From a virus, in UHGV virus genome UHGV-0384005: a stretch of DNA of 49,024 nucleotides. One strand, given 5' to 3'. The notes below the pieces were generated by a model that saw only the letters and a program-made list of their open reading frames with translations, did not search any database and was not told the origin of the DNA. Of this stretch, positions 4,733 to 37,138 are shown one piece after another. A program made the translations under genes and the position numbers. Position 1 is the first letter of the stretch; each line of letters starts with the position of its first letter.

Positions 4733-4734
4733 TA

Positions 4735-5898: not shown

Positions 5899-5944
5899 TC
5901 TGTATCCTCTCTTATGAGCGTTTTTCTTTGCGTTATTTATATCA

Positions 5945-6003
5945 CTTTGCTTAAAAAAAGCAAAGTTTCGTAAAAAAAGCAAAGCTTAATGAAAAAAGCA
6001 AAG
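5945..6003. promoter_or_regulatory. sopAB promoter/operator: CTTTGC hexamer as the palindrome CTTTGCTT-A6-AGCAAAG, plus two more AAAAAAGCAAAG direct repeats
   Basis: CTTTGC/GCAAAG occurs four times in 60 bp upstream of sopA. F SopA autoregulates through CTTTGC repeats. Confidence 0.55.
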
Positions 6004-6270
6004 CTAAAAATTTAACCACCTGGCTAAGCGTTTTGTGACGCAACCCAAGTCTTATTGTGAGAAATGAGTCGGTCACTTTGATAGGATTTAATCTAAACAT
6101 ATGTTTTTAAATGATATTTTATAAATCAAAACCCCTCCATTCTTTAATGAAACATACGAATTCCCACCTTCATTTTATGATCGTTATCACATTACTCACT
6201 AACCAAAACAAATAATCACACAAGTAGAGATCGTAAAATCAATGATTTGTTTATCAATGTGAAAACGAGA

Positions 6271-6366: not shown

Positions 6367-6422
6367 TATCAACACACAATTGCCCATTATACGCGCGTAT
6401 AATGGGTAATTGTGTGCTGATT
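6367..6422. other. telRL: Uncut telRL-type telomere resolution site. 56-bp near-perfect palindrome TATCAACACACAATTGCCCATTATACGCG|CGCGTATAATGGGTAATTGTGTGCTGATTA, centred at 6394/6395.
   Basis: 22-bp arms with one mismatch. Matches my recollection of the N15 telRL sequence (central TACGCGCGTA telO) in all but a few positions. Lies immediately upstream of the protelomerase gene. Confidence 0.8.
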
Positions 6423-9836: not shown

Positions 9837-9997
9837 GGTGCACACTCCAGTTTGGTTATGGGTGCTACCACCAGAGTTCTCACGCTCTAAGGGGTGGTAG
9901 CCCAGACGGGGGTGAGAATACCGGCCCAAACGACACCGGCCAGCCTTTCGGCTGCCCCGCCTGGGCCACCATAATTCAGGTGTGCGCAGGCACTGAC

Positions 9998-10095
9998 ACA
10001 AAAAAACACGCTGGCGCGTGTTGTGCGCGTTTGGGGATTCGGGTTCTCACGCCCGGCTGCGGATTTTGCCGCAACGCGCTAACTCTACCGTCCAA
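9998..10095 (-). ncRNA. Candidate c4/CA-like antisense regulatory RNA at the head of the antirepressor operon
   Basis: Minus-strand promoter-like TTGACG-18-TAGAGT (~10111..10082). Several stem-loops. An intrinsic terminator (ACACGC-tggc-GCGTGT + U7) ends near 10000. The motif GTGAGAAC recurs twice downstream in the mRNA leader (9877-9886, and a complementary UUCUCAC at ~9913). Confidence 0.4.
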
Positions 10096-12078: not shown

Positions 12079-12271
12079 TTTTCCGATCCCCGTTCATCCG
12101 TAATTCCCGATATACCCGCTGCCACATTCGGTAGTTGTGCGCAAATGCTTCTCCACGAAATAAGGCCCGACGAACCCTGCTACCCTCCCGAAGATATAAC
12201 CTGGTCCGGTAATCAAACCATTGCTGGAAGATAAACAGCACAACCACAACTAACAGCGCCAAACTACCCAT
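12065..12271 (-). CDS. Small hydrophobic protein (about 68 aa, MGSLALLVVVVLFIF...), starts at the repA stop
   Basis: Internal ATG of ORF 12065..12388; the N-terminal part of that ORF overlaps repA. Confidence 0.35.
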   Translation of the reverse strand: MGSLALLVVVVLFIFQQWFDYRTRLYLREGSRVRRALFRGEAFAHNYRMWQRVYRELRMNGDRKNVDN

Positions 12272-15200
12272 AGAACGCCTCCGGCGCATCGTAGCCGCCT
12301 GTAGCCATTCCAGTGATGTATTCGCGCAGTCTCCGCAGTTCGTTGCTGGAGAGGCGATCCATAAACTCTGTGAGGTACAGGGAGGCAAAGGTCATCGCGA
12401 TGCTGGCTGGCGACCAGGTATTCATTGTGGCCAGCTCATCGTCGGACAGCGCGGTCATAGCCCAGGCCTCCGGAACAGGCACCGGCAACGTGGCCAGAGC
12501 CTCAGATATTACTGAATGAGGGGCGTCCAGATTCTGCCCGTCTGTGGATCGTGTTTTATGATCCATATATATATTGAGATCCAAACCGTGATCCACTTCG
12601 GTGGCCTTCTTATCGCCCTTATGCAATTGCAGGGACAGGCCGTCTTCCTGGCGGTTCTCCAGGATTTCCATCATGAACGCTGCCGACTCTGGATCAACGA
12701 AGCGGATGGTTGGGCGTTTGTCTCCCTCCCTGGCGCGGCGCTTGTCGGTCTTCAGGCCGAGTGATTCGCAAATGTTTTTAAACAGCGCCTCCGGGACCTT
12801 TGGCTTGCCTTTCGGTGTCATAAAGCCACCAATGCGCAGGACGTTGTTTAACAGGTCGCGCCGTTCGTCTGTCATGAGTTTATCCCTAGCATACTTCATC
12901 CTCGCCTGGGTGGCCTCTCCGGTCATTGTCTCCGGGTCGATACCGCAGTCGATGAAATACTGGCGCAGCGCTGCGGATTTAAGCGCGTAGAACCCGCGCA
13001 TGCCGACTTCAACCGCAGGCGTTGCTTTCACTTTGTAGTCGGTAATACCCGGATGCTTGGCCTGGAATGCTTCATCCGCCTGCTCACGCGTCATGGCCGT
13101 GACAACAAAATATTGCCACTGGCCTGTCTGTTTAAAGGCGTAGGTAAAGTTGATCGCCGATTCTTCGCGGTCATAGCGTCGTGCCGTGACCTCATCGAGC
13201 AGCATGGTTTCGTAGCGGCGAACTTTATCCCGAGCGCCGTCGAAGTAGAATTTCAGGTTGTCTTCGTTAACCGGAATTTTTAACTCGTTCTCAATATCCC
13301 AGCGGACCAGCTTCGCCTGCTCCTCCAGCGTCAGCGCCCGTTTTTTCAGGATTTCCTCGCGTTCTGATTCGTCGGGTGTCTCAATATTCAGATGCAGATC
13401 CAGCGTCTGTTCCCATACGATTTCTCTGGCTTCCTTACGCAGCTCCTTGCCGATAGAGTTCGCCAGTTCGTCAGATGCCAGGGGGGCGACTTTATAGCCA
13501 TCGCTGTGCATGATGCAGATCATATTGCAGGCGTAGTCATTACGTGCCGAGGCTTCTATCGCTGCAGCCTTGATTTTCATCCTGGTGAAATCGGTGTTGG
13601 CCACACCCATTGAAATGCGATCACCATCAAACACAACGTCCGTCACTTCGCCATTCATGCCAGCAGTGGCCAGCAGAGCCTGGGCGAATGCGCGTTCGAT
13701 TTTTTTCGGGTCTGTCTCGCGTTTTGCCCGGACCTTATCAAAGCCGATAATGAATTCTTTAGCGGTACGGTCGCGGCGCAACATCTGGATAGCATCGCTG
13801 GGGACTACTTCGCCGCAGAACATGCCGAAGTGGCGATCAAAGTGTTTTTGTTCAATGGATACGCCAGAAGATATGGATGGGCTGTAAATCAGGCCATCGT
13901 ATTTTTTGACCATCTGTTTTGGCTTATTGGTGAACGCTTCAACCTCTGGCTCCGGTTTACTTTTCTGGTTCACACAAAGGAATTTTTTCTCCGGATAACG
14001 CTGGCGCAGCGTGGCCGTCACGTCCTCCGCAAATGTCGAACTGTCGGTCGCCAGCATGATTTTTTCACCGAGTTCCACCGCCTTAATAACCTCGGTCATA
14101 ATGCGATCCTTCTCGGTATAGAAGACGCGGATAGGTTCTCCGGTTTCGCGGTTGCGAACGTCGACCGGCAATTCGATAACATGAATCTGCAGCCATGCTG
14201 GCAGGCCCATTTCCTCGCGGCGTTTCATTGCCAGTTCTGCCAGGTCAACCAGCAGGTCGTTGGCATCGGCATCCACCATAATGGGGTGCAATTCTGTTCT
14301 GGCCAGCGCGTCGATTAGGGTATTGAAAACGGCAACCGGGTTTTCCATCGCCTTACCTGAAAGAATGGCGCGTAGCCCTTGCGTGGCTTCATCAAATCCA
14401 AAATAGTCGTGCTGGCGCATCAATGGCTGCCAGCAGCCTTTGACGATGGAGTTTATGCAGATAGTCAGCTTATTAGCGTATGGGGCCATTTCCTGATAAC
14501 CAGGATCCTGATAATGCAGAATGTCAGCTTTTGCGCCTTTCTTCTCTGTCATCATTTCCCATAAGCCACCGATAAGGCTTACCCTGTGAGCCACGGAAAC
14601 GCCACGGTCCGCGTCATGCATCAATGGGCGTAACAGGCCTGTCGATTTTCCCGACCCCATGCCGGCACGAACAATCACGATTCCCTGCAGCTGTTGCACG
14701 TACTGCAGAACCTCTTCGGTCATGACTGACGTTTCAAAGCGTTTATACGTGATGTGCTGGGGCCGTTTATTGGGATCGGTAATGCGGTCACTGAAGGAAC
14801 GCGGAGCCTGCGCGGTGCGGCATTTACGGTTAAGGCGACGGGCAATGTGGTCTTTTATCGTTGCGCGGTAAACGTTCTCCAGATCCATTTCCCGCAGAAC
14901 GATGCAGAACATTTTAAACAGGTCCGATGGGCTGTTCGGTACCGGGCATGTGAGCATGCCGATATCCACCGCCTGCAGCAGCTCTTTCGCGAACGTTCGA
15001 CGGTTGTCCCGCTTAATGGTTTTCAGCTTGTTAAGCGTGAGTGTAAGTAAATCTGTGCTGGTACTCAGGCGGTTTGCCTTGCCGAACAACTGGCGAGTTG
15101 TTTCCCGCAGGCCGCGTAATTTGTGCAGGTCGTTGAAGTCGCTGCACTCCAGCTGGGGATCATCTTCGAAAATGGGGTAAACGCATTTTATGCCGTTAAA

Positions 15201-16268
15201 TTTCGCGATGATTTCGTAGCCAGTGCGCAGGCCTGTGTTGCCTTTCCCTTCCGCTGATGATTTGCGGTCGTTATCCAGTGTGCAGGTAATTTTTGCGGCC
15301 GGGTACAGGTTCACCAGCTGCTCAACAACATGAATCATGTTATTTGCCGATACGGCGACAACTACGGCATCAAAGCGCTTTTTCGGATCCTTTCTAGTCG
15401 CCAGCCATACTGATGCGCCTGTTGCGAAGCCTTCGGCTACCGCGATATTTTGCGCGCCTTTCAGGTTGCCGATCACGAAGCAGGAACCCACGAAATCACC
15501 GGTGATGACGGCGTTGGTCTGAAATTTACCGCCACGCTTATCAATACGCTGCCAGCCGACTATTTGCCCGTCTTTGCGCCCGTCCAGATGGGACAGAGGG
15601 ATAGCCATATAAGTGGTTGGCCCGCTGCTCCATCTGGCGCTATCGTGACTGGTCACGCGACGTACATCACACGCGCTAAATACGTCACGAATGCCTTTTT
15701 TCACAGCGTAAGGCCATGAACCGTCCTCAGCAGGCGCATGCTCCCAGGCGTGATGGAATGCAAGCCAGCCAAGCAAACGCTCATGGTCTAATTGGTTGTT
15801 TCGTAAGTCATTAATGCGTTGCTGTTCGGCGCGGCGTCTGCGGGCTTCTGCCTGGCGTTCGATGCGGGCGCGTTCTTCTGCTGGCTGTGCGACCACGGTC
15901 GCATGATTTTTTTGTTGGTCACGGCGGTACTCGGAGAAAAGGAAGGAAAACCCACTCCAGGAACCAGCATCACTGCCCTTCTGGACAAAGTTTATAAAGG
16001 GGTAGCTGATGCCGTCTTTGCTGTGTTCCAGGCGCGAATAGATTTCGACGCGGCCTTTGAGGCTCTTTTCCAGTGCTTCTGGCGAAGGGCCATTATAGGT
16101 GGAATAGCGTTCCTGTCCGCCGCGCGGATTCAACTGGATGTTATCAGCACAGGCTGGCCAGTTAATGCCAGCCATCTTTGCCAGCTCTGTTAGCTCATCC
16201 CGTGCAGCTTCAAGCAATGAGAACGGATCGCTGCCAAAGCGATCCGCATAGAATTCTTGTAAGGTCAT
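12264..16268 (-). CDS. repA: Multifunctional replication protein RepA (primase-helicase), N15 RepA-like
   Basis: 1334 aa. Walker A GMGSGKST. Its size and position (between the tel/ant region and cB) match N15 RepA, which I recall as about 1324 aa. Confidence 0.9.
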   Translation of the reverse strand: MTLQEFYADRFGSDPFSLLEAARDELTELAKMAGINWPACADNIQLNPRGGQERYSTYNGPSPEALEKSLKGRVEIYSRLEHSKDGISYPFINFVQKGSDAGSWSGFSFLFSEYRRDQQKNHATVVAQPAEERARIERQAEARRRRAEQQRINDLRNNQLDHERLLGWLAFHHAWEHAPAEDGSWPYAVKKGIRDVFSACDVRRVTSHDSARWSSGPTTYMAIPLSHLDGRKDGQIVGWQRIDKRGGKFQTNAVITGDFVGSCFVIGNLKGAQNIAVAEGFATGASVWLATRKDPKKRFDAVVVAVSANNMIHVVEQLVNLYPAAKITCTLDNDRKSSAEGKGNTGLRTGYEIIAKFNGIKCVYPIFEDDPQLECSDFNDLHKLRGLRETTRQLFGKANRLSTSTDLLTLTLNKLKTIKRDNRRTFAKELLQAVDIGMLTCPVPNSPSDLFKMFCIVLREMDLENVYRATIKDHIARRLNRKCRTAQAPRSFSDRITDPNKRPQHITYKRFETSVMTEEVLQYVQQLQGIVIVRAGMGSGKSTGLLRPLMHDADRGVSVAHRVSLIGGLWEMMTEKKGAKADILHYQDPGYQEMAPYANKLTICINSIVKGCWQPLMRQHDYFGFDEATQGLRAILSGKAMENPVAVFNTLIDALARTELHPIMVDADANDLLVDLAELAMKRREEMGLPAWLQIHVIELPVDVRNRETGEPIRVFYTEKDRIMTEVIKAVELGEKIMLATDSSTFAEDVTATLRQRYPEKKFLCVNQKSKPEPEVEAFTNKPKQMVKKYDGLIYSPSISSGVSIEQKHFDRHFGMFCGEVVPSDAIQMLRRDRTAKEFIIGFDKVRAKRETDPKKIERAFAQALLATAGMNGEVTDVVFDGDRISMGVANTDFTRMKIKAAAIEASARNDYACNMICIMHSDGYKVAPLASDELANSIGKELRKEAREIVWEQTLDLHLNIETPDESEREEILKKRALTLEEQAKLVRWDIENELKIPVNEDNLKFYFDGARDKVRRYETMLLDEVTARRYDREESAINFTYAFKQTGQWQYFVVTAMTREQADEAFQAKHPGITDYKVKATPAVEVGMRGFYALKSAALRQYFIDCGIDPETMTGEATQARMKYARDKLMTDERRDLLNNVLRIGGFMTPKGKPKVPEALFKNICESLGLKTDKRRAREGDKRPTIRFVDPESAAFMMEILENRQEDGLSLQLHKGDKKATEVDHGLDLNIYMDHKTRSTDGQNLDAPHSVISEALATLPVPVPEAWAMTALSDDELATMNTWSPASIAMTFASLYLTEFMDRLSSNELRRLREYITGMATGGYDAPEAFYG
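15644..15657. repeat. Palindrome CGTGACTGGTCACG (family GTGAC-NN-GTCAC), inside repA
   Basis: Identical 14-mer at 22759. Related site at 10134. Confidence 0.35.
15887..15904. repeat. SopB-box-like palindrome GTGCGACCACGGTCGCAt, one arm mismatch, inside repA coding sequence
   Basis: Member of a 5-copy family resembling the F sopC core TGGGACCACGGTCCCA. Confidence 0.55.
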
Positions 16269-17207: not shown

Positions 17208-17423
17208 ATGAAGCCAGAAGAACTTATCCGCCACTTTGGCGATGTTGAAAAAGCTGCTGAAGGCGTGGGTGTGACACCTTGCGCGGTCTACCAATGGCTG
17301 GCTGCAGGAGTAATTCCCCCTCTTCGGCAAAGCGATATAGAAGTCCGGACGGCTTATCAACTGAAAAGTGATTTCACTGTTCGTCGTGTTGGTAAGAAAG
17401 GTGATGGTCATGGAGCTGAATAA
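17208..17423 (+). CDS. cro: Cro-like early regulator
   Basis: 71 aa, divergent from cB, with an HTH-like GVTPCAVYQW. Confidence 0.7.
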   Translation: MKPEELIRHFGDVEKAAEGVGVTPCAVYQWLAAGVIPPLRQSDIEVRTAYQLKSDFTVRRVGKKGDGHGAE

Positions 17424-18147
17424 CATACGCATTTGGGTATCTACGGCTCTTTCCGACATTCACTACCTCCAACGCGGCATCCTTGAGGTTCAGTTAGAGC
17501 AGCTGCGTCTTGCCAGTTCTGACAGATTCACTGATAAGCCGACCAGAACAATCAGTATAGGAGAGAGTGAAGTCTATGAAATATCTGTTCCTGCCGATCC
17601 GGTTCGTTTTCACGTTGGGAAAACATTTAAGCAATCCTCAATGCTGCTGACTGAATTAGATTTTGCTACCACCAGCTGGCGCAGAGCTATTGGGCAGTTA
17701 AACCGAGAGGAAACAGCATGGTTATATTATTGCTATGGCTGTAAACCTGATTACAACAACGACGTGATTATTTGCCAGTGGCTATGGCTTGATTTTTTAG
17801 TTGCCCATTCGAAGTCCGGATTTAAAAAGATGAAAACGGCAACTAAAAAAAACATGTGGAAATTGACGTATAACAGTATTCAGGAAGTTAAAGCCGAAAT
17901 TATCCGCAATGAACCTCCAGACGAAAAATACGAGGATGAGCATTTTAGTTACTTGCTCAATATATCGGTTGATAGCTGGAGAAAAGATTACAAAAAACGC
18001 TGGTCATTATTGAAATCACGATGCCTTTATCTGAATAAAACCGCATTGCTTAATGCGGCGGAGAAACGTAGTGAAATCATTAACCTCAATAGGGCAGGAA
18101 GTCCCAACCTGCCTGTGCCAGCAGATTATGCACAGGAAACCAGGTAG
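17410..18147 (+). CDS. Putative late-gene antiterminator (Q-like by position, as in N15). Start moved to MELNNIRIW... with an AGGTGA RBS.
   Basis: Immediately follows cro. The call rests on gene order in N15-type immB regions, not on recognised sequence motifs. Confidence 0.35.
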   Translation: MELNNIRIWVSTALSDIHYLQRGILEVQLEQLRLASSDRFTDKPTRTISIGESEVYEISVPADPVRFHVGKTFKQSSMLLTELDFATTSWRRAIGQLNREETAWLYYCYGCKPDYNNDVIICQWLWLDFLVAHSKSGFKKMKTATKKNMWKLTYNSIQEVKAEIIRNEPPDEKYEDEHFSYLLNISVDSWRKDYKKRWSLLKSRCLYLNKTALLNAAEKRSEIINLNRAGSPNLPVPADYAQETR

Positions 18148-18373
18148 GCCAGAGCTTAGGTATTCAGGTGTCCGGAAAGAGTTCATCATCTGGTGCCCTA
18201 CCTGTAACTATCGTACTCATCCGGACACGAACCGACAGGCAGTTATCACAGAGTGGTATTTGTCTAATCAGCCAGGAAATAAGCATATAGAGAAAATATG
18301 GCTTAGACGCTACATGGAAATCAGAGAGGGTGCGACCACGGTCGCACAGGATGATAATGAAAACACCATTTAA
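18131..18373 (+). CDS. Hypothetical small Cys-containing protein (CPTCNY)
   Basis: Internal ATG of ORF 18053..18373. Contains SopB-box copy 18330-18347. Confidence 0.4.
   Translation, partial: HRKPGRPELRYSGVRKEFIIWCPTCNYRTHPDTNRQAVITEWYLSNQPGNKHIEKIWLRRYMEIREGATTVAQDDNENTI
18330..18347. repeat. SopB-box-like palindrome GTGCGACCACGGTCGCAC (perfect)
   Basis: Family of 5. Confidence 0.6.
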
Positions 18374-23369: not shown

Positions 23370-23804
23370 TCACTGCCGTGCAGCGGCAACAGATACGCCG
23401 ATATTTTTGTTTAGCTGATGCAAGGCCAGCTCAATAGTTTCGGCCTTTGAAGAGTGCTCGACGTCCAGCAGGCGATCAATCTGAGTCCCACTTTTCCCCA
23501 ACTTGCGGGCCAGCTCGGCTTTGCGCGTTCCCGTTTCAATCATGGCGTTGTGCAGTGCCGCTTTCATTGCGGGGAGAACGGGAAGATAAACAACGTACTC
23601 CCCTTCTTGCGGTTCGCTACCCTGTGGAACGGGGCGTCGTTCTTCAATCTCAATAGCAACCGCAGCCACTAAGCCATAACTTGCCTCAAGCAGCGCCTCT
23701 TCTACGGAATAGCCTACAGAGTTCATCAGGGGTAAATCTCTGCAGGAGACTATATACGCACCGGTATCAGTGTCGTATTCCAATTTTACCGGGTAGTTGA
23801 ACAT
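23370..23804 (-). CDS. hicB: HicB-family antitoxin (RNase H-like fold plus C-terminal HTH)
   Basis: 144 aa, downstream of and co-directional with hicA. Domain assignment is by recollection of HicB family layout. Confidence 0.75.
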   Translation of the reverse strand: MFNYPVKLEYDTDTGAYIVSCRDLPLMNSVGYSVEEALLEASYGLVAAVAIEIEERRPVPQGSEPQEGEYVVYLPVLPAMKAALHNAMIETGTRKAELARKLGKSGTQIDRLLDVEHSSKAETIELALHQLNKNIGVSVAAARQ

Positions 23805-23846
23805 ACAGATCCCCTCACGCGTGTTGTTGCTGAAAAAGGCTGGGGC

Positions 23847-24029
23847 TTAAAGCCCCAGGTCCTTCATTATTTTTTTCCTTAGTGGTTCTGGCATTTCTTT
23901 AGAACCGTGGTCCGGAAAAATTGACCTCATACCGTTCAAACTGACTTTTTGGTGGCTTCCGCCTCCTGGTGCCTTTTTGAACTCGGCCCCCTGCTGAACT
24001 AGCCAGCGTCTGAACTCCGAATATTTCAC
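23847..24029 (-). CDS. hicA: HicA-family mRNA interferase toxin
   Basis: GSHQK motif and PEPLRKKIMKDLGL C-terminus. The start was moved to an internal GTG with an AAGGAAG RBS; the long AT-rich N-terminal extension of ORF 23847..24119 is unlikely to be coding. I could not fully reconcile the displayed sequence with the ORF track near 23940, so the boundary is approximate. Confidence 0.7.
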   Translation of the reverse strand: MKYSEFRRWLVQQGAEFKKAPGGGSHQKVSLNGMRSIFPDHGSKEMPEPLRKKIMKDLGL

Positions 24030-24202
24030 AAGCTTCCTTATGTAACTTCTTCTTCGTGGGCAAAATAATAATAACATACAAGATGAAAAACACAACAAAT
24101 AAATATAAAAATACATCATAAATGTGTATAAAAAGACTGGATGTGTTTAGCGATGAGAGTTACAGTTCGTGTCATTGAAGCAAAGCAATAACCGATAACC
24201 AG

Positions 24203-24453: not shown

Positions 24454-24681
24454 ATGAACGTTAAAAAAATTCGCGAAACAATGACTGAGGCGGCTTTAAG
24501 TGTTGAGGGGGTTATGCGGGGCCACCCTCGCATTTCCCTGCCAGAGTTAAGCGAAGCCTGCGGTATCAGCGCCTCTTCTGTAGAGTTGATTGTAGAGCAA
24601 ATGGTTATTTTTGGAGTTGCGCAGCGCGGCGCTTTCGGGCGTTATTCCCTGACCACAGAATATAAAAACGGGCAATTTTGA
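24454..24681 (+). CDS. Hypothetical protein, possibly winged-helix
   Basis: ORF. Confidence 0.5.
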   Translation: MNVKKIRETMTEAALSVEGVMRGHPRISLPELSEACGISASSVELIVEQMVIFGVAQRGAFGRYSLTTEYKNGQF

Positions 24682-24686
24682 AAATC

Positions 24687-24704
24687 GTGCGACCACGGTC
24701 GCAC
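24687..24704. repeat. SopB-box-like palindrome GTGCGACCACGGTCGCAC (perfect; arms extend to 10 bp, TCGTGCGACC..GGTCGCACGA)
   Basis: Family of 5. Sits about 20 bp upstream of the candidate late promoter. Confidence 0.6.
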
Positions 24705-24723
24705 GAACTAAAAACGAAAAAGG

Positions 24724-24752
24724 TTGGCAAAATAGCCTTTTTTAGGTATCGT
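24724..24752 (+). promoter_or_regulatory. Candidate late promoter TTGGCA-17-TATCGT, preceding a short terminated leader
   Basis: Pattern match only. Position is analogous to lambda PR'. Confidence 0.3.
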
Positions 24753-24787
24753 TTTTCTAAGTTGGGATTTTTACGCCTGACTACTAA

Positions 24788-24810
24788 TAACCGCCGCCAG
24801 GCGGTTTTTT
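24788..24810 (+). terminator. Intrinsic terminator AACCGCC-gccag-GCGGTTTTTTT (tR'-like position)
   Basis: Read directly from the sequence. Confidence 0.6.
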
Positions 24811-24946
24811 TGTGCCTGAAAAGTGGGCGCGGGATAAGTTGCAGCTCATCCCGCAGTAAACCCATAACCTAGCTATAGGCTAAACCCTAAGCCCACCCGC
24901 GATGCGCATCGCTGGGTTAGCTTACCCAGGCAAAACCATAATAGCC

Positions 24947-26017
24947 ATGTTAAAAACCATTAATATCAAGGAAGCGCAGCTCGTTTGCGCAGATTCTCTG
25001 CAATTTATTAAAACCATCCCGGACAGTTCAGTGAACCTGATCGCAACTGACCCACCCTATTTCGGCGTAAAGGCGAATTCATGGGATAACCAATGGGAAA
25101 GCGATGCTGATTTCCTGGGCTGGCTTGATGAGTTTCTGGCAGAGTTCTGGCGAATATTGGCCCCTAATGGAAGCCTCTACATGTTCACTGGCTCACGGCT
25201 TGCGTCCAATATCGAAATTCTTACTCGTAACCGTTTTAATGTGTTGAACCATATCACTTGGGCAAAGCCTAGCGGTGTCTGGAAGCGATGCCACAAAGAA
25301 GATCTACGCAGTTATTTTCCTGCAACTGAGCGCATCATATTTGCCGAGCATTATGGCGCATCTGGTTATGCGAAAGGCCAGTCGGGATATGCGAGTAAGT
25401 GTGCAGACCTGCAGAGAGATATTTTCTCACCGCTTATTGAATTGTTTGCATCAGCGCGTCGTCAGTTGGGCATCTCGGCAGCTGATATCAATGCAGCAAC
25501 GGGAAAACAAATGTGTTCACACTGGTTTTCTTCGTCGCAGTGGCGACTACCGGCGCTGGCTGATTTCAACAAGCTGCAGACGTTGTTTCAGTGCCGCGCA
25601 GATTCGCTGGGTGTCCCTTGCCCTCCTCCGTTTGATGTTGGGTATGGTGAACACCAGCAACATTACGCAGACCTGAAGCAGCGCTATGAGGCTGTCAAAC
25701 TTCAGTATGGCGACCTTAAAGCACAATACGAAAACCTGCGGCGTCCGTTCTCTGTAACCGCTGATGTTCCCTATACCGATGTTTGGGAGTTTCCTCCGGT
25801 ACAGTATTACCCTGGAAAGCATCCATGTGAGAAACCGGCAGCGTTGATGGAGCACATCATCGAAAGCAGTTCTCGCCCTGGCGATGTTGTTGCTGATTTC
25901 TTTATGGGATCCGGCTCAACAGTAAAAGCTGCGCTAAAGCTGGGCAGGAAAGCTATCGGCGTTGAACTTGAAGAGGAGCGATTCCTTCAGACGGTTAACG
26001 AGATAGAAAAACTTTAA
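24947..26017 (+). CDS. Beta-class DNA N6-adenine (or N4-cytosine) methyltransferase
   Basis: DPPY motif IV near the N-terminus (IATDPPYFG) and an FxGxG motif I near the C-terminus (FFMGSGST). Start moved to the internal ATG. Confidence 0.8.
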   Translation: MLKTINIKEAQLVCADSLQFIKTIPDSSVNLIATDPPYFGVKANSWDNQWESDADFLGWLDEFLAEFWRILAPNGSLYMFTGSRLASNIEILTRNRFNVLNHITWAKPSGVWKRCHKEDLRSYFPATERIIFAEHYGASGYAKGQSGYASKCADLQRDIFSPLIELFASARRQLGISAADINAATGKQMCSHWFSSSQWRLPALADFNKLQTLFQCRADSLGVPCPPPFDVGYGEHQQHYADLKQRYEAVKLQYGDLKAQYENLRRPFSVTADVPYTDVWEFPPVQYYPGKHPCEKPAALMEHIIESSSRPGDVVADFFMGSGSTVKAALKLGRKAIGVELEEERFLQTVNEIEKL

Positions 26018-26079
26018 CCAACCAACAGCCTCGCTTAGTGCGGGGCTTTTTATTGCCCGCCGCGCGGGATGGCGGAGCT

Positions 26080-26391
26080 ATGACAACGGCAATTGAGTAC
26101 ACAAATCCCGATCTCTGGCTGGTCTTGCTCATGTTGATTGCTGGGGCGATTTCCAGCGCCCTGCTCTCTGATACCCCCATTAACATGCGCCGGCTTCTTG
26201 GTGATGTTCTCCGGGGAATTATCGTCGCCATCCTTCTTTGGTCCTACGGTGCGCTGGGCAACTTTTCCATTTTAAAAGTAATCACCATTGCTGGTCTGTC
26301 AGCTATTGCATGGCCACATACCGTCAATGAAATCACGGGTTTTGCGAAACGAACAATCAGCCGGATATTCGGCGGGAGAAACAAACGATGA
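26080..26391 (+). CDS. Putative holin (2-3 TMDs)
   Basis: Hydrophobic small protein at the head of the lysis cassette. Confidence 0.45.
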   Translation: MTTAIEYTNPDLWLVLLMLIAGAISSALLSDTPINMRRLLGDVLRGIIVAILLWSYGALGNFSILKVITIAGLSAIAWPHTVNEITGFAKRTISRIFGGRNKR

Positions 26392-26876
26392 ATTATGGAC
26401 TGGCAAATAAACGGGATGCAGTCCTGTTTGCTGAGGCTGTATGTAACGTTATCGGTGGCGGTAAAAATAACAGCGCTGTTTTGCTCTGCGTTGAAACAGC
26501 CGCAGCCGAAACACTATTGGGTGACTTTAAAGACCCCACCCCGAACGGTGCAGGAACAGGGCTAACGCAAGTCGATTTGGGAACCTTTGAATGGCTTCGC
26601 GATAAATATAAAAACAGTCGCTATGCCAGCGTTCTCTTAAAAGAATTCGGCGTCGATTTAAGTCGAACGGTGTATCAGGAACTTAAAACATCGCCGCTGC
26701 TGGCCATGCTTTTTTGTCGTTTACGTTATCTGGCAGTTTCCGAACCTATCCCACAGACCAGAGAAGGCAGAGCCGCCTACTGGAAAAAGTATTACAACAC
26801 TTCTGCAGGCAAAGGTACGCCGCAGGATTATCTCAATAAATGCCAACGTGCAGGCGTTGATGCACTGTTCACGTAG
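26388..26876 (+). CDS. Putative endolysin, assigned by position only
   Basis: Sits between the holin-like and spanin-like genes. No motif recognised. Confidence 0.3.
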   Translation: MNYGLANKRDAVLFAEAVCNVIGGGKNNSAVLLCVETAAAETLLGDFKDPTPNGAGTGLTQVDLGTFEWLRDKYKNSRYASVLLKEFGVDLSRTVYQELKTSPLLAMLFCRLRYLAVSEPIPQTREGRAAYWKKYYNTSAGKGTPQDYLNKCQRAGVDALFT

Positions 26877-26895
26877 TGAGCCGTAAGGAGTGACT

Positions 26896-27360
26896 ATGAA
26901 AAGTTTAAAACGAATGGTTAAAGCATGGCTACTGATGAACGTTACTTTCGCCCTGCTCGTTATGGCCACGCAGCCGGCACTGGCCAGCGATAGTCTGGAT
27001 CTGGATTCCATCATTAATGCCCTCCCAGCGGGCTGGGGAAGTGTCGTAGCCGGTGTATTTATTGTGCTGTATGCGGTGGCGCAGCTGCGTGCCGTTCTCC
27101 CCCCTTCTGTTACCAACAAAATCCCGACAGTGGTTATGAAAATCCTGGATTTTGTTGCAGCGAACTATGCTCACGCCCGTAATGCTGATGCGGTAAGCAA
27201 AGCAGCGAAGGAGGCAGCAAAGGCAGAGGGGCCATCTGATGACGAGTATCGCGTGATGGTTGAGACAGCCAAGAACAAAGGGGAACTGCGTGGAAGCCGC
27301 ATTGAGAGCGCTGGCGATTATCCTGGAGATGATAGGCCAGGCAGTAAAAGCACGAAGTGA
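26896..27360 (+). CDS. Putative i-spanin / membrane protein
   Basis: Hydrophobic N-terminus, charged C-terminus, AAGGAG RBS. Confidence 0.4.
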   Translation: MKSLKRMVKAWLLMNVTFALLVMATQPALASDSLDLDSIINALPAGWGSVVAGVFIVLYAVAQLRAVLPPSVTNKIPTVVMKILDFVAANYAHARNADAVSKAAKEAAKAEGPSDDEYRVMVETAKNKGELRGSRIESAGDYPGDDRPGSKSTK

Positions 27361-27386
27361 AGATGAGCGACAGCAGAGGATAGATT

Positions 27387-27605
27387 ATGCGCGGAATAAT
27401 CCCGCTGATTATCTGCGTCGTTTTGGCAGGGTGCGGGATGTCTCCCGCACTCACGCCGATGCTGGAGCCGACGCAATGCGCAGCGGAAAAACCGACGATT
27501 GATATTGTTCATTTAGACGGGTACTTCGTTATATCTGATGACGATATGGGAAGGTTGACCGGATATATTGCCGCACTTGAGTCTGGTTGCGTTGCGCCTA
27601 AATGA
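27387..27605 (+). CDS. Lipoprotein (lipobox LAGC), putative o-spanin
   Basis: Signal peptide plus Cys lipobox. Confidence 0.5.
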   Translation: MRGIIPLIICVVLAGCGMSPALTPMLEPTQCAAEKPTIDIVHLDGYFVISDDDMGRLTGYIAALESGCVAPK

Positions 27606-27628
27606 ACAACTTACTTTTAGGATAGATA

Positions 27629-27934
27629 ATGAAAGTCTACATCGCCGGTCCCATGACCGGGCTGGATAATTTTAATCGTGATACTTTCAATAAAGAGGCG
27701 GATCGCCTTTCTCGTCATGGCCATACGGTATTAAATCCGGCAATGCTGCCGAATGGCCTGGAGCAACGAGAATATATGGATATTTGCTTTGCGATGCTCC
27801 GCTGTGCTGATGCCATTCTTTTGTTACCTGGCTGGAAGTCTTCAGCAGGTGCAACTGCTGAATATCACTATGCCTACAAAATGGAGTTACCGGTTTATTC
27901 AACGCTGAAATATCCTCCGGTAGCAGCAAAATAA
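27629..27934 (+). CDS. DUF4406 (nucleoside 2-deoxyribosyltransferase-like) protein
   Basis: MKVYIAGPMTG...N-terminal signature. Confidence 0.55.
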   Translation: MKVYIAGPMTGLDNFNRDTFNKEADRLSRHGHTVLNPAMLPNGLEQREYMDICFAMLRCADAILLLPGWKSSAGATAEYHYAYKMELPVYSTLKYPPVAAK

Positions 27935-27945
27935 TAAAGGGAATA

Positions 27946-28864
27946 ATGAGCGCGTTTTACAATGAAATAGATGGATACCCCGCCACCTGGCTAAATAACT
28001 TGATCGCAAATGGTTTAATTGCCGATGGTGTTGTTGATGAGCGTTCAATTGTCGAAATAGTTTCTTCGGATGTTATTGGAAAGACGCAGTGTCATTGGTT
28101 TGCCGGGATTGGTGTCTGGAGCTATGCGCTGCGTTTAGCGGGCTGGCCTGATAGCCGCCCTGTATGGACAGCAAGCCTGCCCTGTCAGCCCTGGAGTTCT
28201 GCAGGGAAAGGAGGAAAATTTGAAGACGAGCGACATCTCTGGCCTGTGTTTTTCCGACTCGTTAAAGAGTGCCGCCCTCCAGTCATATTTGGTGAACAGG
28301 TTTCAAGCAAGGACGGACTCGAGTGGTTCTCAGCTGTACAAGCTGACCTGGAAAATGCGGGATATGCCGTTGCGGCGGTTGATACATGCGCAGCGAGCGT
28401 CGGTGCGCCGCATATCAGACAACGACTCTTCTGGATGGCCTACGACTACAGCCAGCAATACCAAAACAGCGATAAAAGATGTATTGAAAATAATGGCAAG
28501 GAAAGCAGCAGGAAGACAGTCGAACCTGCAGGATGTAGCGGTACTTGCCGGATGGAACACCCCAACAGCCAGCGACAGCAAAGGCGGCTATGTAGGCGGG
28601 AGGATCCGGAACGGGAAATTATCCACCGACCGCCTGGATGTAACCTCTCAACTGGCCAGCTGGCCAGAGAACAAAGAACTGCAGAACCTATTGCAGACAT
28701 TAACCATCCCTTACGGCCCATGCCGGTTGACTCATTCTGGCGAGATACTGACTGGCTCTTCTGCCAGGATGGAAAGTGGAGGCCAGTTGAACCCACATCA
28801 TTCCCGTTGGCTCATGGGGTTGCCGGTAGAGTGGGCCAACTGCGCGCCTATGGCAACGCGATAG
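27946..28864 (+). pseudogene. DNA (cytosine-5)-methyltransferase whose coding sequence is split between two frames (probable +1 frameshift near 28410-28440)
   Basis: Frame 1 carries motifs I (FAGIG), IV (PCQ), VI (ENV-like GEQV) and VIII (QRLFW). Frame 2 (ORF 28220..28864) carries a GW(P/N)TPTASD repeat pair and a ...[21 protein letters not shown]-terminus that I recall from prophage C5-MTases. Confidence 0.55.
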
Positions 28865-28985
28865 TAGCACCATTAGCCGCAGCATTTATTTCCTCAGCAA
28901 GCAGCGCCATTCAGGCATTCGAATCTGATTTAAAGAGTGCGGACAGCAGTCAATAACGCACCAACTAGAAGTAGTGTTCCGCTTC

Positions 28986-29003
28986 CGTGCGACCACGGTC
29001 GCA
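28986..29003. repeat. SopB-box-like palindrome GTGCGACCACGGTCGCAC (perfect), followed by a T6 run, so terminator-like on the + strand
   Basis: Family of 5. Confidence 0.6.
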
Positions 29004-29094
29004 CGCTTTTTTCTTCTCATCAGAATATCTACGAAACTCTCGTTATCAGGCCGGACATGCGTCTACATACGTAGTCCGCCCGTTCCCTTTAAAA

Positions 29095-30407: not shown

Positions 30408-30842
30408 ATGGGATCAGGAGTGAGAGCACCTGGCGGCGGTCGTAAGTCGAATAACACAGGAACGCAGGTTAGTTCTCTTACAAGAGCCGTTTCCCCGCCT
30501 GATGAGCTTCTTGGTGAAATGGCTGTTGATGCCTGGCGACGAACGTGCAAAATCCTGATCAACAGGGGTACGTTCGAGATGGAAGATTGTTATTTGCTGA
30601 TGGAATACTGCAATACAGTGCAGCTTCTGTACGACGCAAATCAGGAAATTAAAAGCGATGGTATTGGCGACGACACGGCTGCAGGCGGACAAAAGCTGGG
30701 CGCGGCGGTTAAGGCCAGGAGCAAATATATCAGCGAACTTATTCGTCTCAGTGTTGTGTTGAAACTGGACCCCAACAGCCGCGTCAGGAAAAAGCAGCCA
30801 GGAGATAACACCAACCCAGGAAACGAATTCGACGAATTTTAA
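30408..30842 (+). CDS. Terminase small subunit (P27 family)
   Basis: 144 aa, immediately upstream of terL. The family assignment rests on its length, its position between the HNH gene and terL, and a general resemblance I could not pin to a specific motif. Confidence 0.8.
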   Translation: MGSGVRAPGGGRKSNNTGTQVSSLTRAVSPPDELLGEMAVDAWRRTCKILINRGTFEMEDCYLLMEYCNTVQLLYDANQEIKSDGIGDDTAAGGQKLGAAVKARSKYISELIRLSVVLKLDPNSRVRKKQPGDNTNPGNEFDEF

Positions 30843-30868
30843 TTGGGACTTTAGTCCCTTTTTTATGG

Positions 30869-35336: not shown

Positions 35337-35364
35337 AAGCAGCCTGTTGGCTGCTTTTTTTATG
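35337..35364 (+). terminator. Stem-loop AGCAGCC-tgtt-GGCTGCT plus a T-run between the protease and major capsid genes (attenuator-like)
   Basis: Read directly from the sequence. Confidence 0.35.
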
Positions 35365-35382
35365 CCAAAAAGAGAGAAAACT

Positions 35383-36669
35383 ATGCCACAGATTGAAGAA
35401 TTACGTCGTCAGCGTGCGGGTATTAATGAACAGGTACAGGCCCTGGCCACGATTGAAACTACCGGTGGAACGCTGACAGCGGAGCAGTTAACCGAATTTG
35501 CCAGCCTGCAGCAGCAGTTCACGGATATCAGCGCCAAAATTGAGCGTCTGGAAGCGGCTGAACGTGCTGCAGCTCTGGTTGCCAAACCGGTTAAAGGCAC
35601 ACAGCATGCTCCTGGTATCAGCGTTAAGGCTGAGCCAAAGCAATATACCGGCGCAGGCATGACCCGTCTGGTAATGTCGATTGCAGCAGCACAGGGTAAC
35701 GTCCAGGATGCCGCAAAATTTGCAGCTGAAGAGCTGAATGACCAGTCTGTCTCGATGGCCATCAACACTGCCGCTGCGTCAGGCGGTGTTCTTATTCCGC
35801 AAAACCTGCACAGCGAGGTGATCGAACTGCTACGCGATCGCACCATCGTTCGTAAGCTGGGCGCGCGATCCATTCCGCTGCCGAACGGTAATATGGCGCT
35901 GCCGCGTCTGGCCGGTGGTGCGACGGCGAGCTACACCGGGGAAGGCAAGGATGCGAAAGTATCCGAAGCCCGCTTTGATGATGTGAAACTCACCGCGAAA
36001 ACCATGATTGCAATGGTGCCAATCTCCAACCAGCTGATTGGTCGTGCCGGCTACAACGTGGAGCAGCTGGTCCTGCAGGATATTCTGACCGCGATCTCTG
36101 TTCGTGAAGATAAAGCCTTTATGCGTGATGACGGTACCGGTGATACGCCTGTCGGTATGAAAGCGCGAGCAACCCAATGGAACCGCCTGCTGCCGTGGGA
36201 AGCTGCTGCAGAGGTTAATCTGCAGACGATTGATGCGTATCTCGACAGCATCATCCTGATGGCGATGGACGGGAACAGCAACATGATCAGCTGCGGCTGG
36301 GGCATGTCGAACCGTACTTACATGAAACTGTTCGGGCTGCGCGACGGGAACGGTAACAAGGTCTACCCGGAAATGGCCCTGGGTATGCTGAAGGGATATC
36401 CGATTCAGCGTACCAGCGCTATCCCGGCAAATCTCGGTGACGGCGGCAAAGAGTCAGAAATTTATTTCGCTGACTTTAATGACGTGGTTATCGGTGAAGA
36501 CGGCAACATGAAAGTGTCGTTCTCGCAGGAAGCCTCCTACCAGGACGGGGATGGCAATCTGGTTTCCGCGTTCTCCCGTAACCAGTCGTTGATCCGTGTG
36601 GTGACGGAGCATGATATCGGCTTCCGTCATCCGGAAGGTCTTGTACTCGGGACAAAAGTGCTGTTTTAA
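35383..36669 (+). CDS. Major capsid protein (HK97 fold)
   Basis: About 428 aa. N-terminal coiled-coil delta-like region then capsid domain. Start moved to MPQIEEL. Confidence 0.9.
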   Translation: MPQIEELRRQRAGINEQVQALATIETTGGTLTAEQLTEFASLQQQFTDISAKIERLEAAERAAALVAKPVKGTQHAPGISVKAEPKQYTGAGMTRLVMSIAAAQGNVQDAAKFAAEELNDQSVSMAINTAAASGGVLIPQNLHSEVIELLRDRTIVRKLGARSIPLPNGNMALPRLAGGATASYTGEGKDAKVSEARFDDVKLTAKTMIAMVPISNQLIGRAGYNVEQLVLQDILTAISVREDKAFMRDDGTGDTPVGMKARATQWNRLLPWEAAAEVNLQTIDAYLDSIILMAMDGNSNMISCGWGMSNRTYMKLFGLRDGNGNKVYPEMALGMLKGYPIQRTSAIPANLGDGGKESEIYFADFNDVVIGEDGNMKVSFSQEASYQDGDGNLVSAFSRNQSLIRVVTEHDIGFRHPEGLVLGTKVLF

Positions 36670-36684
36670 CCGATCCTGCACTCT

Positions 36685-36702
36685 GTGCGACCACGGTCGC
36701 AC
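36685..36702. repeat. SopB-box-like palindrome GTGCGACCACGGTCGCAC (perfect; arms extend to 12 bp, CTCTGTGCGACC..GGTCGCACAGAG)
   Basis: Family of 5. Confidence 0.6.
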
Positions 36703-36727
36703 AGAGTAAAAGCACGTAATCTCCCAG

Positions 36728-36752
36728 GCCCGCAGCAGCGGGTTTTTTCTTT
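36728..36752 (+). terminator. Intrinsic terminator CCCGC-agca-GCGGG plus T6 after the major capsid gene
   Basis: Read directly from the sequence. Confidence 0.55.
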
Positions 36753-36766
36753 TCAGGAGCAAAACG

Positions 36767-37138
36767 ATGACAACGAAAGCGGCAAAAGCAGCGGCAGCTG
36801 CAACCGGGGATGTGAAAAAGCCGGATGAACTGACGCCGGAAAATACAGTGGACGGGAATGACGGTCAGAATACTGCAGCGGGTTCAGGTGATACCGGTGT
36901 TGATCTGACCGGAAGTGAAACAAACGGGGCCACGGGCCTGACGGGAGCAGAAGTGGCGCGGAAAGCGGTTTTTTTCCTGGGACCCTATCATCGTTATTCA
37001 CGCGGTGATACGGCCTGTTTTGATGCTGAGTACGCAGAAAAACTGGTTGAACGCCATATTGCGGTATGGCCAGAAGATGCGGAAAAGGCGCTGAGTCCCC
37101 GCAAGGGAGCCGATGACCATGATACTGACATTGGATGA
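36767..37138 (+). CDS. Head-associated protein (Gly/Thr-rich N-terminus), function unknown
   Basis: ORF in the head-completion block. Confidence 0.4.
   Translation: MTTKAAKAAAAATGDVKKPDELTPENTVDGNDGQNTAAGSGDTGVDLTGSETNGATGLTGAEVARKAVFFLGPYHRYSRGDTACFDAEYAEKLVERHIAVWPEDAEKALSPRKGADDHDTDIG

Follow-up and report, generated by a model that had tools for sequence, protein, structure and literature searches.

The window, a virus genome of 49,024 nucleotides (UHGV-0384005), is that of an N15/phiKO2-type telomere phage. It is identical to the Citrobacter freundii plasmid NZ_CP032182.1 over the 5 kb tested. It carries a cognate sopAB operon with an N15-type SopB recognition region. The gene for the centromere-binding protein, sopB (3761–4732, minus strand; Pfam SoPB_HTH, E=9.7e-22), likely has its true start at the ATG at 4732, within the ORF 3761–4795. 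The sopA ORF (4735–5982, minus strand) encodes a ParA-type ATPase (Pfam AAA_31/CbiA/ParA) and has the position of N15 gene 28. A telRL-like telomere resolution palindrome (6368–6421), whose gap-free arms of 27 nt are 93% complementary, lies between sopA and the protelomerase gene (6583–8502; a 639-aa ORF with TelK/ResT domains). The repA gene (12264–16268, minus strand) and a Q-type late antiterminator gene (17368–18147, plus strand; Pfam Phage_antiter_Q, PF06323, E=5e-83), positioned as N15 gene 40, follow. The SopB of the window is 81% identical to N15 SopB (gp27) over 320 aa. Its recognition region reads GIDRNIITRC, and residues 179–200, the binding specificity region, differ from N15 SopB by three conservative changes.

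A pattern search located GTGCGACCACGGTCGCAC at five sites in the window (15887–15904, 18330–18347, 24687–24704, 28987–29004, and 36685–36702). The first has one mismatch, at the final T, and the other four are exact. Dinucleotide-preserving shuffles gave a mean of 0.03 matches and never attained 10 strand-matches. In a relaxed scan of the window, no further copies with 1–3 mismatches were found and matches with 4 mismatches were at or under the shuffled background; the set is therefore clean. At 24686–24705 and 28986–29005 the palindrome extends to the 20-bp CGTGCGACCACGGTCGCACG. All five sites fit the 18–20 bp IR-family palindrome GTGCGACCnnGGTCGCAC with 0–1 mismatch and have the C at position 4/4′ that separates the N15-type box from F sopC. 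The central dinucleotide is AC in all five, in contrast to AC, TC, AT, and AC in N15. The boxes are single and dispersed, at 15.9, 18.3, 24.7, 29.0, and 36.7 kb, with sopB at 3.8–4.7 kb. Their sequence is that of N15 IR1–IR4, in agreement with the published IR1–IR4 oligonucleotides, and N15 SopB has been seen to gather in foci on an array of these sites (4xIR). With the SopB identity and the near-identical recognition region, this bears out the initial annotation, which had called the palindromes SopB boxes, and places them in the N15 type. Judged by sequence, they are the dispersed, putatively SopB-binding centromere of an N15-type SopABC system of a linear plasmid-prophage; four are orthologues of IR1–IR4 and the fifth is extra.

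The IR1 orthologue (15887–15904) lies inside repA, and its flanks match N15 33479 and phiKO2 37905, the latter an annotated partition site. This box, which the initial annotation did not discuss, is followed by GA and T7, antisense to repA. The IR2 orthologue (18330–18347) begins 183 nt past the Q stop codon, within the 3′ end of a Lar-like ORF (18053–18373; phrog_6795, E=4e-39), and its flanks are orthologous to N15 35930 and phiKO2 40345. The phiKO2 GenBank record (AY374448; Casjens et al. 2004) lists "putative plasmid partitioning sites" at four positions orthologous to boxes of the window.

The IR3 orthologue (24686–24705) begins 5 nt past the stop of a gp51-like gene (24454–24681). It is followed on the plus strand by an A-rich tract (GAACTAAAAACGAAAAAGG, 24706–24723) that may act as an UP element, which it resembles, and by the homologue of the N15 late promoter p52 (24724–24752). 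A promoter scan placed the −35 hexamer TTGGCA at 24724–24729 and, after a 17-bp spacer, the −10 hexamer TATCGT at 24747–24752. These align to the annotated N15 −35/−10 (41162/41185) and to the "putative late promoter" of phiKO2. The box ends 19 bp from TTGGCA, close to the 20 bp of the initial annotation, and its dyad is 28 bp upstream of the −35 hexamer. A near-invariant start-site-proximal element, TAAGTTGGG (24758–24766, plus strand), is a candidate −10-like pause/Q-loading element by analogy with lambdoid Q systems. The leader intrinsic terminator, also anticipated in the initial annotation, is at 24789–24811 (plus strand; AACCGCC-GCCA-GGCGGTT and T7). It is homologous to the N15 stem_loop 41229–41250 and the phiKO2 terminator 45489–45510; across relatives its stem is kept and its loop is variable. 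The window thus has the parts of a Q-dependent late promoter: a sigma-70 promoter, a conserved initial transcribed element, a Q gene, and a terminator ahead of the first of the late genes.

This unit is strongly conserved. A scan that used only the promoter motif as its anchor gathered 31 distinct promoter contexts from relatives, and every one carries a box with its dyad 28–29 bp upstream of the −35. The AAAAAGG directly before the −35 is present in 31/31 contexts and invariant in a four-phage alignment, and TAAGTTGGG is kept, with single-base variants, in nearly all of them. Among relatives, the type of box changes together with the recognition helix of SopB. In a lineage with F-type boxes (TGGGACCnnGGTCCCA), a box is again found just upstream of the homologous late promoter, its dyad 17 bp from the −35 and so 11 bp closer than in the N15 type, which is about one helical turn. 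Both the invariance of the box/late-promoter unit in 31/31 relatives and its persistence in lineages switched to F-type boxes go beyond the literature that we reached.

The first late block (24902–28956) has the gene order of N15 genes 52–58. By Pfam/PHROG matches it comprises, all on the plus strand, an N6 methylase (24902–26017), lysis-region ORFs (26038–27360), a DUF4406-like gene (27629–27934), and a C5 methylase (27946–28956); a terminator scan added a terminator-like hairpin at 26027–26047. The IR4 orthologue (28986–29012, plus strand) stands at the end of this lysis/methylase block and consists of the box (28986–29005), one C, and T6 (29007–29012). The same scan listed it as terminator-like on the late-sense strand, with 8 pairs and a loop of 4, and the minimum-energy RNA fold of 28970–29015, which includes this hairpin, is −14.7 kcal mol−1. 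The initial annotation had it as a plus-strand terminator-like hairpin, which is right at sequence level and agrees with the N15 GenBank record, where IR4 is already annotated as a putative rho-independent terminator. Its T6 is real as well, although it does not follow directly, since one C intervenes between the stem and the U-tract. The wider proposal that three late-region boxes double as such hairpins held for this box and failed for the two others named. A hairpin with a U-tract on the late-sense strand was found for box 28986 only; boxes 24686, 18330, and 36685 have no T-tract on that strand.

The tail of IR4 differs among relatives. It is T6 in three Citrobacter-lineage contexts and T4 in about 11 N15-like ones (in N15 itself only T4CC, a weak terminator tail), and eight phiKO2-type contexts have no T-tract, as in phiKO2 and the Klebsiella phages. 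In the N15/Citrobacter type, GC and T4–T6 follow the box in 13/14 contexts and a second terminator is lacking within 160 nt, whereas 7/8 phiKO2-type contexts lack the T-tract and have a canonical terminator 35–84 nt downstream. This complementarity follows two clades and amounts essentially to two independent observations. The confinement of the IR4 T-tract to the clade without a separate terminator there also goes beyond the literature reached.

The fifth box (core 36685–36702) is inside a perfect 28-bp palindrome (36680–36707). It starts 15 nt after the stop codon of the major capsid gene (36667–36669), and it ends about 24 nt before a separate intrinsic terminator (36726–36748, plus strand) that precedes a gp7-like gene (36767–37138); the initial annotation had placed it just so, about 25 nt ahead of the terminator. 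The junction is that of the annotated terminators of phiKO2 (6020–6039) and N15 (7053–7073). Neither N15 nor phiKO2 has a counterpart of this box near the capsid gene. It is found at the same place in 35/80 capsid-anchored relatives, and boxes at the capsid gene of relatives occur in three different embeddings, a distribution that we did not meet in the literature reached. The arms beyond the core gave no convincing covariation among the relatives listed (19 perfect versus 9 mismatched combinations). At the terS/terL junction, the window keeps a hairpin with T6 (30844–30864), in which a C/G to T/A change has preserved the palindrome but abolished the match to the box.

The closest known system is N15, which shares the box sequence, the late promoter, and the leader terminator and has its four boxes at matching places, namely within repA, past Q, ahead of the late promoter, and where the methylase block ends. 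The late-region boxes are at transcriptional junctions as the initial annotation stated, and the junctions are those of N15 and phiKO2. Since four boxes are exactly at the places of IR1–IR4, the finding is real and mostly re-describes known biology; the idea in the initial annotation is a re-statement of published N15 biology and not a new inference. The window differs from N15 in the fifth box after the capsid gene, in T6 rather than T4CC after IR4, and in a head module that is phiKO2-like, not lambda-like. phiKO2 shares the box sequence and has four boxes, one at each of these junctions, with the late promoter and terminator annotated beside the third. It lacks the capsid-gene box, and its IR4 equivalent has no T-tract but a separate terminator 35 nt downstream.

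F plasmid SopB is homologous and its sopC sites have an almost identical 16-bp core, the sole difference from the N15 sites being position 4/4′ of each half-site. The F boxes form one array of tandem 43-bp repeats beside sopB, whereas those of the window are spread over about 21 kb and none adjoins sopAB. F SopB is known for spreading and silencing. KorB of RK2/IncP, a ParB-family protein, uses dispersed palindromic operators for partition and global transcription control. These operators are lone palindromes, scattered and in some cases directly preceding a −35 hexamer, and KorB acts on them as a repressor with KorA or TrbA. The likeness to the window is one of working mode, with partition coupled to gene regulation through scattered palindromes, homology being compared at the level of the ParB family only; KorB represses, and the N15 Sop effect is said to be positive. 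The lambda PR′-qut-tR′ system resembles the window in its Q-family gene, its late promoter of the sigma-70 type, its conserved element near the start site, and its leader terminator. There Q and the late promoter adjoin, whereas in the window 6.4 kb separate the two, with a SopB box at either end of this interval.

We consider it probable, from sequence and homology, that the boxes form a dispersed centromere, that those at 18330 and 24686 also aid late transcription, and that IR4 has a role as a terminator. The primary job of the five boxes would be SopB loading for partition of the low-copy prophage, as their identity with sites tested in N15 suggests. In N15, Sop reportedly facilitates Q-dependent late expression through IR2 and IR3, by neither silencing nor SopB-dependent termination. 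The window has the layout for this, with one box just past Q, another before the −35, and kilobases between them. By homology with N15, boxes 18330 and 24686, which bracket the interval from Q to the late promoter, may help Q-dependent late transcription. The dyad of box 24686 precedes the predicted start site by about 63 bp and lies directly upstream of the A-rich UP-like tract. The likely route would be a SopB-mediated contact of the Q-side box with the late-promoter box 6.4 kb away, so that Q could find its loading site efficiently. The analysis establishes how the boxes are laid out, their orthology, and their conservation; SopB binding, facilitation of the late genes, and termination are what we infer here. 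Once transcribed, box 28986 would fold into a GC-rich hairpin of 8 bp with U6 behind it. In the Citrobacter clade it is most likely an intrinsic terminator that, without Q, ends transcription of the lysis/methylase block; polymerase modified by Q would read through it. The capsid box would be an additional SopB loading site. Placement at a junction is not obligatory, because boxes also lie inside coding sequences (repA, the Lar-like ORF, and the gp7-like gene in relatives).

We think it unlikely that the boxes serve partition purely and do nothing for transcription. Their positions would then derive from common ancestry with N15 and phiKO2 and from tolerance of an 18-bp palindrome in the few stretches without coding sequence, which in a compact genome happen to coincide with operon junctions. 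Synteny of four positions with N15 and phiKO2 suits this account, as do the boxes tolerated inside the three coding sequences just named, an IR4 T-tract that is not kept family-wide, and the behavior of the capsid-box arms. It has more difficulty with the rigid box-to-(−35) spacing in 31/31 contexts, with a box that stays at the late promoter after the F-type switch, moved by about one helical turn, and with a box that turns up beside the capsid gene in three embeddings unrelated to each other. Against it, too, is the part of the Sop system in late gene expression of N15, published by Ravin, Rech, and Lane (2008).

SopB on box 24686 might instead spread over the late promoter and silence it in lysogens, as a second lock on lytic leakage beside the absence of Q. 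This is compatible with the preferred reading, although we rate it as rather improbable. When induced, N15 SopB silences a weak promoter about 50 bp from a 4xIR array; this documents for N15 SopB the silencing of neighboring promoters to which the initial annotation had appealed. The box ends 19 bp from the −35, and in a lysogen of a Klebsiella telomere phage the few proteins detected include SopA and SopB. The documented case nevertheless used four clustered boxes and induced SopB, and the N15 phenotype is reportedly one of facilitation. Of the N15-like logic proposed in the initial annotation, the coupling of box and late promoter is supported. Silencing would also add little, since late promoters of the lambda type are as a rule constitutive, with control exerted at the terminator. 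Overproduced N15 SopB does silence a promoter near an IR array, and in lysogens late-promoter activity could on balance still be lowered.

More tentatively, and with rather little probability in our estimate, selection may act on where SopB boxes lie rather than on their sequence and so keep them, family-wide, at particular junctions of the late operon: ahead of the late promoter, where the lysis block ends, in the terS/terL gap, and just past the capsid gene. On this reading the boxes persist through the switch from N15 type to F type together with the SopB helix, reappear at the capsid gene in three unrelated embeddings, and in some clades take the place of a local intrinsic terminator. If so, the partition protein would be a built-in architectural organizer of late transcription, and some boxes would be true dual-use DNA/RNA elements.

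Selection of the late-region palindromes mainly as RNA hairpins, that is, as terminators or 3′-end stabilizers of the lysis and capsid messages with the box match secondary, seems very doubtful. The stable fold of 36670–36755 (−35.7 kcal mol−1, z-score −5.1), which joins the hairpin of palindrome 36680–36707 to the terminator, is in keeping with it, and so is the hairpin with T6 kept at terS/terL though the box is lost. Yet the 18-bp core does not vary among the five sites or between genera, a constancy well in excess of the needs of a hairpin; the box type covaries with the SopB helix, and two of the five boxes are outside the late transcripts. Least probable, to a degree that makes it remote, is the stronger version of the proposal in the initial annotation, direct modulation of elongation by SopB at 28986 and 36685, by roadblock (termination) or hairpin masking (antitermination). 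Placement is all that speaks for it, both boxes being on the path of the late transcript within 30 nt of a gene end. A protein on the DNA has no bearing on whether the RNA folds into a hairpin, and polymerase halted by a roadblock would stop short of the box, not at the U-tract. The equivalent boxes of relatives are inside coding sequences or without T-tracts, and no precedent was found in the literature reached. A trivial point of numbering is that the box starts in the initial annotation mixed those of the 18-mer and the 20-mer.

The window belongs to the linear plasmid-prophages known as telomere phages, and is of the N15/phiKO2 type. Over 24.4–29.4 kb it matches Citrobacter freundii plasmid NZ_CP032182.1 (49.8 kb) at 100% identity, and a second Citrobacter plasmid at 97%. 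The more distant matches of the head genes are Klebsiella phiKO2-like phages, and those of the late-promoter and lysis region are N15 and Enterobacter elements. We identified sopB (3761–4732, minus strand), sopA, the protelomerase gene (6583–8502), repA (12264–16268, minus strand), the late antiterminator gene Q (17368–18147), an N6 methylase, lysis-region ORFs and a C5 methylase (24902–28956), terS and terL (from 30408), and the major capsid gene (35347–36669). Between sopA and the protelomerase gene is a telRL-like perfect-dyad palindrome (6368–6421) with 27-nt arms and an TATACGCGCGTATA core. With this palindrome as the origin, the five SopB boxes fall 9.5–30.3 kb into the telN-side arm, and the tail/sop arm holds none. 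Rfam matches to C4 antisense RNA, isrK and c4-a1b1 targets at 9890–10088 (minus strand) point to a putative P1/N15-type anti-immunity RNA beside the antirepressor operon.

The presence of the boxes, palindromic SopB partition sites, was confirmed. The sequence GTGCGACCACGGTCGCAC is found at 15887 (one mismatch), 18330, 24687, 28987, and 36685, against 0.03 copies expected by chance from shuffled sequence. A search of the window for further copies with one to three mismatches gave none. The local anatomy described in the initial annotation was correct at the three boxes that we re-read. The box at 24686–24705 starts 5 nt past the stop of a gp51-like gene and ends 19 bp before the late promoter TTGGCA-17-TATCGT (described as about 20 bp); the leader terminator placed beyond this promoter is a hairpin followed by T7 (24789–24811). 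The box at 28986–29005 is followed by C and then the reported T6, and is terminator-like by scan; the minimum energy of the RNA fold of 28970–29015 is −14.7 kcal/mol. The box at 36685 lies within a 28-bp perfect palindrome that begins 11 nt past the capsid stop, and the distance from the end of the box to the separate terminator is approximately 24 nt. All five boxes have their central AC on the + strand; we dropped this orientation as a meaningful feature, as it is not conserved in relatives and has a chance probability of about 1 in 16. The box at 18330 falls within the final 15 codons of a Lar-like restriction-alleviation ORF (18053–18373; phrog_6795, E=4e-39), which is unannotated in the N15 and phiKO2 records.

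N15 holds this palindrome four times, at 33479 (in repA), 35930 (between Q and gene 41), 41124 (20 bp upstream of the annotated late-promoter −35), and 45561 (after gene 58). Published oligonucleotides confirm these as IR1–IR4, the four SopB sites of N15. The flanks of the window boxes at 15887, 18330, 24686, and 28986 align with IR1–IR4 and also with phiKO2; in the GenBank record of phiKO2, those four places bear the label "putative plasmid partitioning site". SopB of the window is 81% identical to N15 SopB; together with Pfam, this identity to N15 makes the proteins involved unambiguous at the sequence level. The centromeres of F and N15 differ at position 4/4' only, and the binding specificity of N15 SopB is set by residues 179–200, where the window protein has three conservative changes. 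Because box sequence, flank alignment, SopB identity, and specificity region all agree, we assign the boxes as N15-type centromere sites, four of them orthologues of IR1–IR4. The element is placed in the N15 IR family, which has a published link to late expression. The fifth box, after the capsid gene, is a new site relative to N15 and phiKO2.

A 2008 study by Ravin, Rech & Lane reportedly found that lysis is delayed by mutations in IR2, which follows Q, or in IR3, which precedes the N15 late promoter p52, and that an ir3-minus late-promoter fusion is poorly expressed in lytic growth. Q together with IR2 and SopAB in trans is said to lift the ir3+ fusion above the level with Q alone. The initial annotation had proposed that the N15 logic of partition and late control applies here. 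Such logic is known from N15, but the reported effect is positive and belongs to IR2 and IR3, not IR4. That interpretation is largely a restatement of the N15 literature and is partly supported. The coupling of partition to the lytic programme is already published for N15, and the window is one more member. Full-text literature searches for the N15 circuit or extra boxes in telomere phages returned reference-list citations only. If the N15 logic holds, the partition system would be wired into the lytic programme of a large enterobacterial phage-plasmid group (Citrobacter, Klebsiella, Enterobacter, Escherichia).

Viral contigs were scanned with the late-promoter motif as the sole anchor. The box dyad lies 28–29 bp upstream of the −35 in 31/31 distinct late-promoter contexts. 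The F-type box (TGGGACCnnGGTCCCA) is used by phages among which are a PY54-like contig and relatives whose capsid is 90% identical. In these phages, too, a box immediately precedes the homologous late promoter. Their dyad is 17 bp from the −35, which is 11 bp closer than in the N15-type lineage, or about one helical turn. Among loci holding both sopB and boxes, the SopB recognition helix DRNI(I/V)xRC pairs with GCGACC boxes (window, N15, phiKO2 comparison), and S/DRK(I/V)IMRC or close variants with GGGACC (F-type) boxes (L329, L299, L265, L287, and L314). The box next to the late promoter was kept through this specificity change, which argues for a function of that position beyond partition. 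An invariant box/late-promoter unit in 31 distinct relatives, persisting in F-type-box lineages, adds to what was published.

That the boxes, assigned as centromere sites, serve partition alone and owe their positions to descent and tolerance is unlikely in view of this retention. Silencing of the late promoter by SopB in lysogens is a further account that we regard as improbable, set beside the positive effect reported for N15. N15 SopB, when induced, silences a weak promoter approximately 50 bp from a 4xIR array, and silencing is compatible with our main explanation. In the explanation we prefer, SopB would load at all five boxes for partition. By homology with N15, and with moderate confidence, two boxes would assist Q-dependent late transcription: the one that follows Q, and the one near −63 relative to the late promoter, which sits just beyond an A-rich UP-like tract. 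The likely route would be that the Q gene and the Q loading site are brought together.

In three relatives (L207, L211, and L203) a second box precedes the first by 47 bp, so that the dyads are 28 and 75 bp from the −35. A HicB-like/toxin pair (phrog_497, phrog_353; 23370–24119, minus strand) immediately precedes the gp50/51-like genes and box 24686; N15 and phiKO2 have instead a RelE/ParE-type toxin-antitoxin pair at the equivalent place.

The boxes had also been described as terminator-like hairpins. This holds for one of the three late-region boxes, 28986, the only box with a late-sense T-tract; selection of the hairpins at the RNA level is, in our estimate, quite unlikely. When all 325 box contexts were screened for T-tracts under a lax criterion, about one third were flagged, too many to be informative, and a junction-specific test was used instead. 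In N15/Citrobacter-type IR4 contexts, 13/14 have the box followed by GC and T4–T6 and lack a further terminator within 160 nt. The T-tract is absent from 7/8 phiKO2-type IR4 contexts, with a canonical terminator 35–84 nt downstream. The T-tailed IR4 box, found only in the clade without a separate terminator there, fits a box hairpin that serves as local terminator in one clade, the comparison covering two clades only. In the N15 GenBank record, IR4 (stem_loop 45560–45584) carries the label "putative rho-indep. transcription terminator". An IR4 box that doubles as a clade-specific candidate terminator is a modest addition. With lower confidence, box 28986 and its U6 would probably act as an ordinary intrinsic terminator without Q, and Q-modified polymerase would probably read through it. 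SopB-dependent termination or antitermination, as first suggested, found no support and is very improbable, since a hairpin in RNA needs no DNA-bound protein and a SopB roadblock would be expected to act upstream of the box. These comparative points open the way to telling SopB binding and RNA-hairpin function apart by concrete and cheap mutations.

The ORF that begins at 28987 has no similarity to N15 gp59, and the gene after IR4 is not conserved with N15. Rfam and tRNA scans of the interval under study gave no matches. The IR4 box sits within a block of about 50 nt (28973–29022; AGTGTTCCGCTTyC-box-GCTTTTyy.TTCyCAT) that is kept across N15, Enterobacter, and Citrobacter lineages even with different neighbouring genes. 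A 44-aa minus-strand ORF (28886–29020; MRRKKRATVVARKRNT...) spans this block and is probably no gene. The repA-internal box is followed on the + strand by GA and T7 (15887–15915 with the box), which is terminator-like but antisense to repA; this T7 run is confined to the Citrobacter lineage, the tracts being interrupted in N15 and phiKO2. The terS/terL gap (30844–30864) holds TGGGAC-TTTA-GTCCC and then T6, right past the terS stop (30840–30842) and some 14 nt ahead of the ATG (30878) at which terL likely starts. F-type-box phages have a perfect SopB box TGGGACCnnGGTCCCA at this junction, with T6 directly after it in 4/5 contexts. In the window the C/G pair beside the centre, C7/G10 of the 16-bp core, is now T/A; the palindrome and T-tract are retained, whereas the GACC/GGTC core of the box is gone. 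This junction has no palindrome in phiKO2 and KpLi5.

The fifth box was surveyed in 80 capsid-anchored loci. The window arrangement, with a box 15 nt past the capsid stop, is present in 35 loci. An N15-type box lies 113–116 nt downstream in 29 loci, within the next gene, where it encodes HAT[V/T]VAQ. Seven loci have F-type-like boxes at +131 and/or +212 in the next gene (DGTAVPT); GGTCTC makes the +212 copy, and some of those at +131, imperfect. Six loci are without a box, as in phiKO2, and in three the end of the capsid gene was not located. The five boxes of Klebsiella phage KpLi5 occupy the same neighbourhoods as those of the window. From these counts and KpLi5, a fifth site is common in the family and recurs in unrelated embeddings. 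Five boxes, not four, being common in the family is likewise an addition. A search for covariation in the capsid-box arms beyond the 18-bp core gave 19 perfect against 9 mismatched combinations in sequences related by descent, which does not point to selection at the RNA level. In Klebsiella relatives (L079, 1367–1533; L340, 6036–6094), the full box in the post-capsid gene borders a 27-bp tandem array of up to 6.2 copies, which is absent from the window. The array units are degenerate boxes (GTGCGGTCTCAGTCGCAT) in which the outer arms are retained and the core is altered. The array is sopC-like, but lies inside coding sequence.
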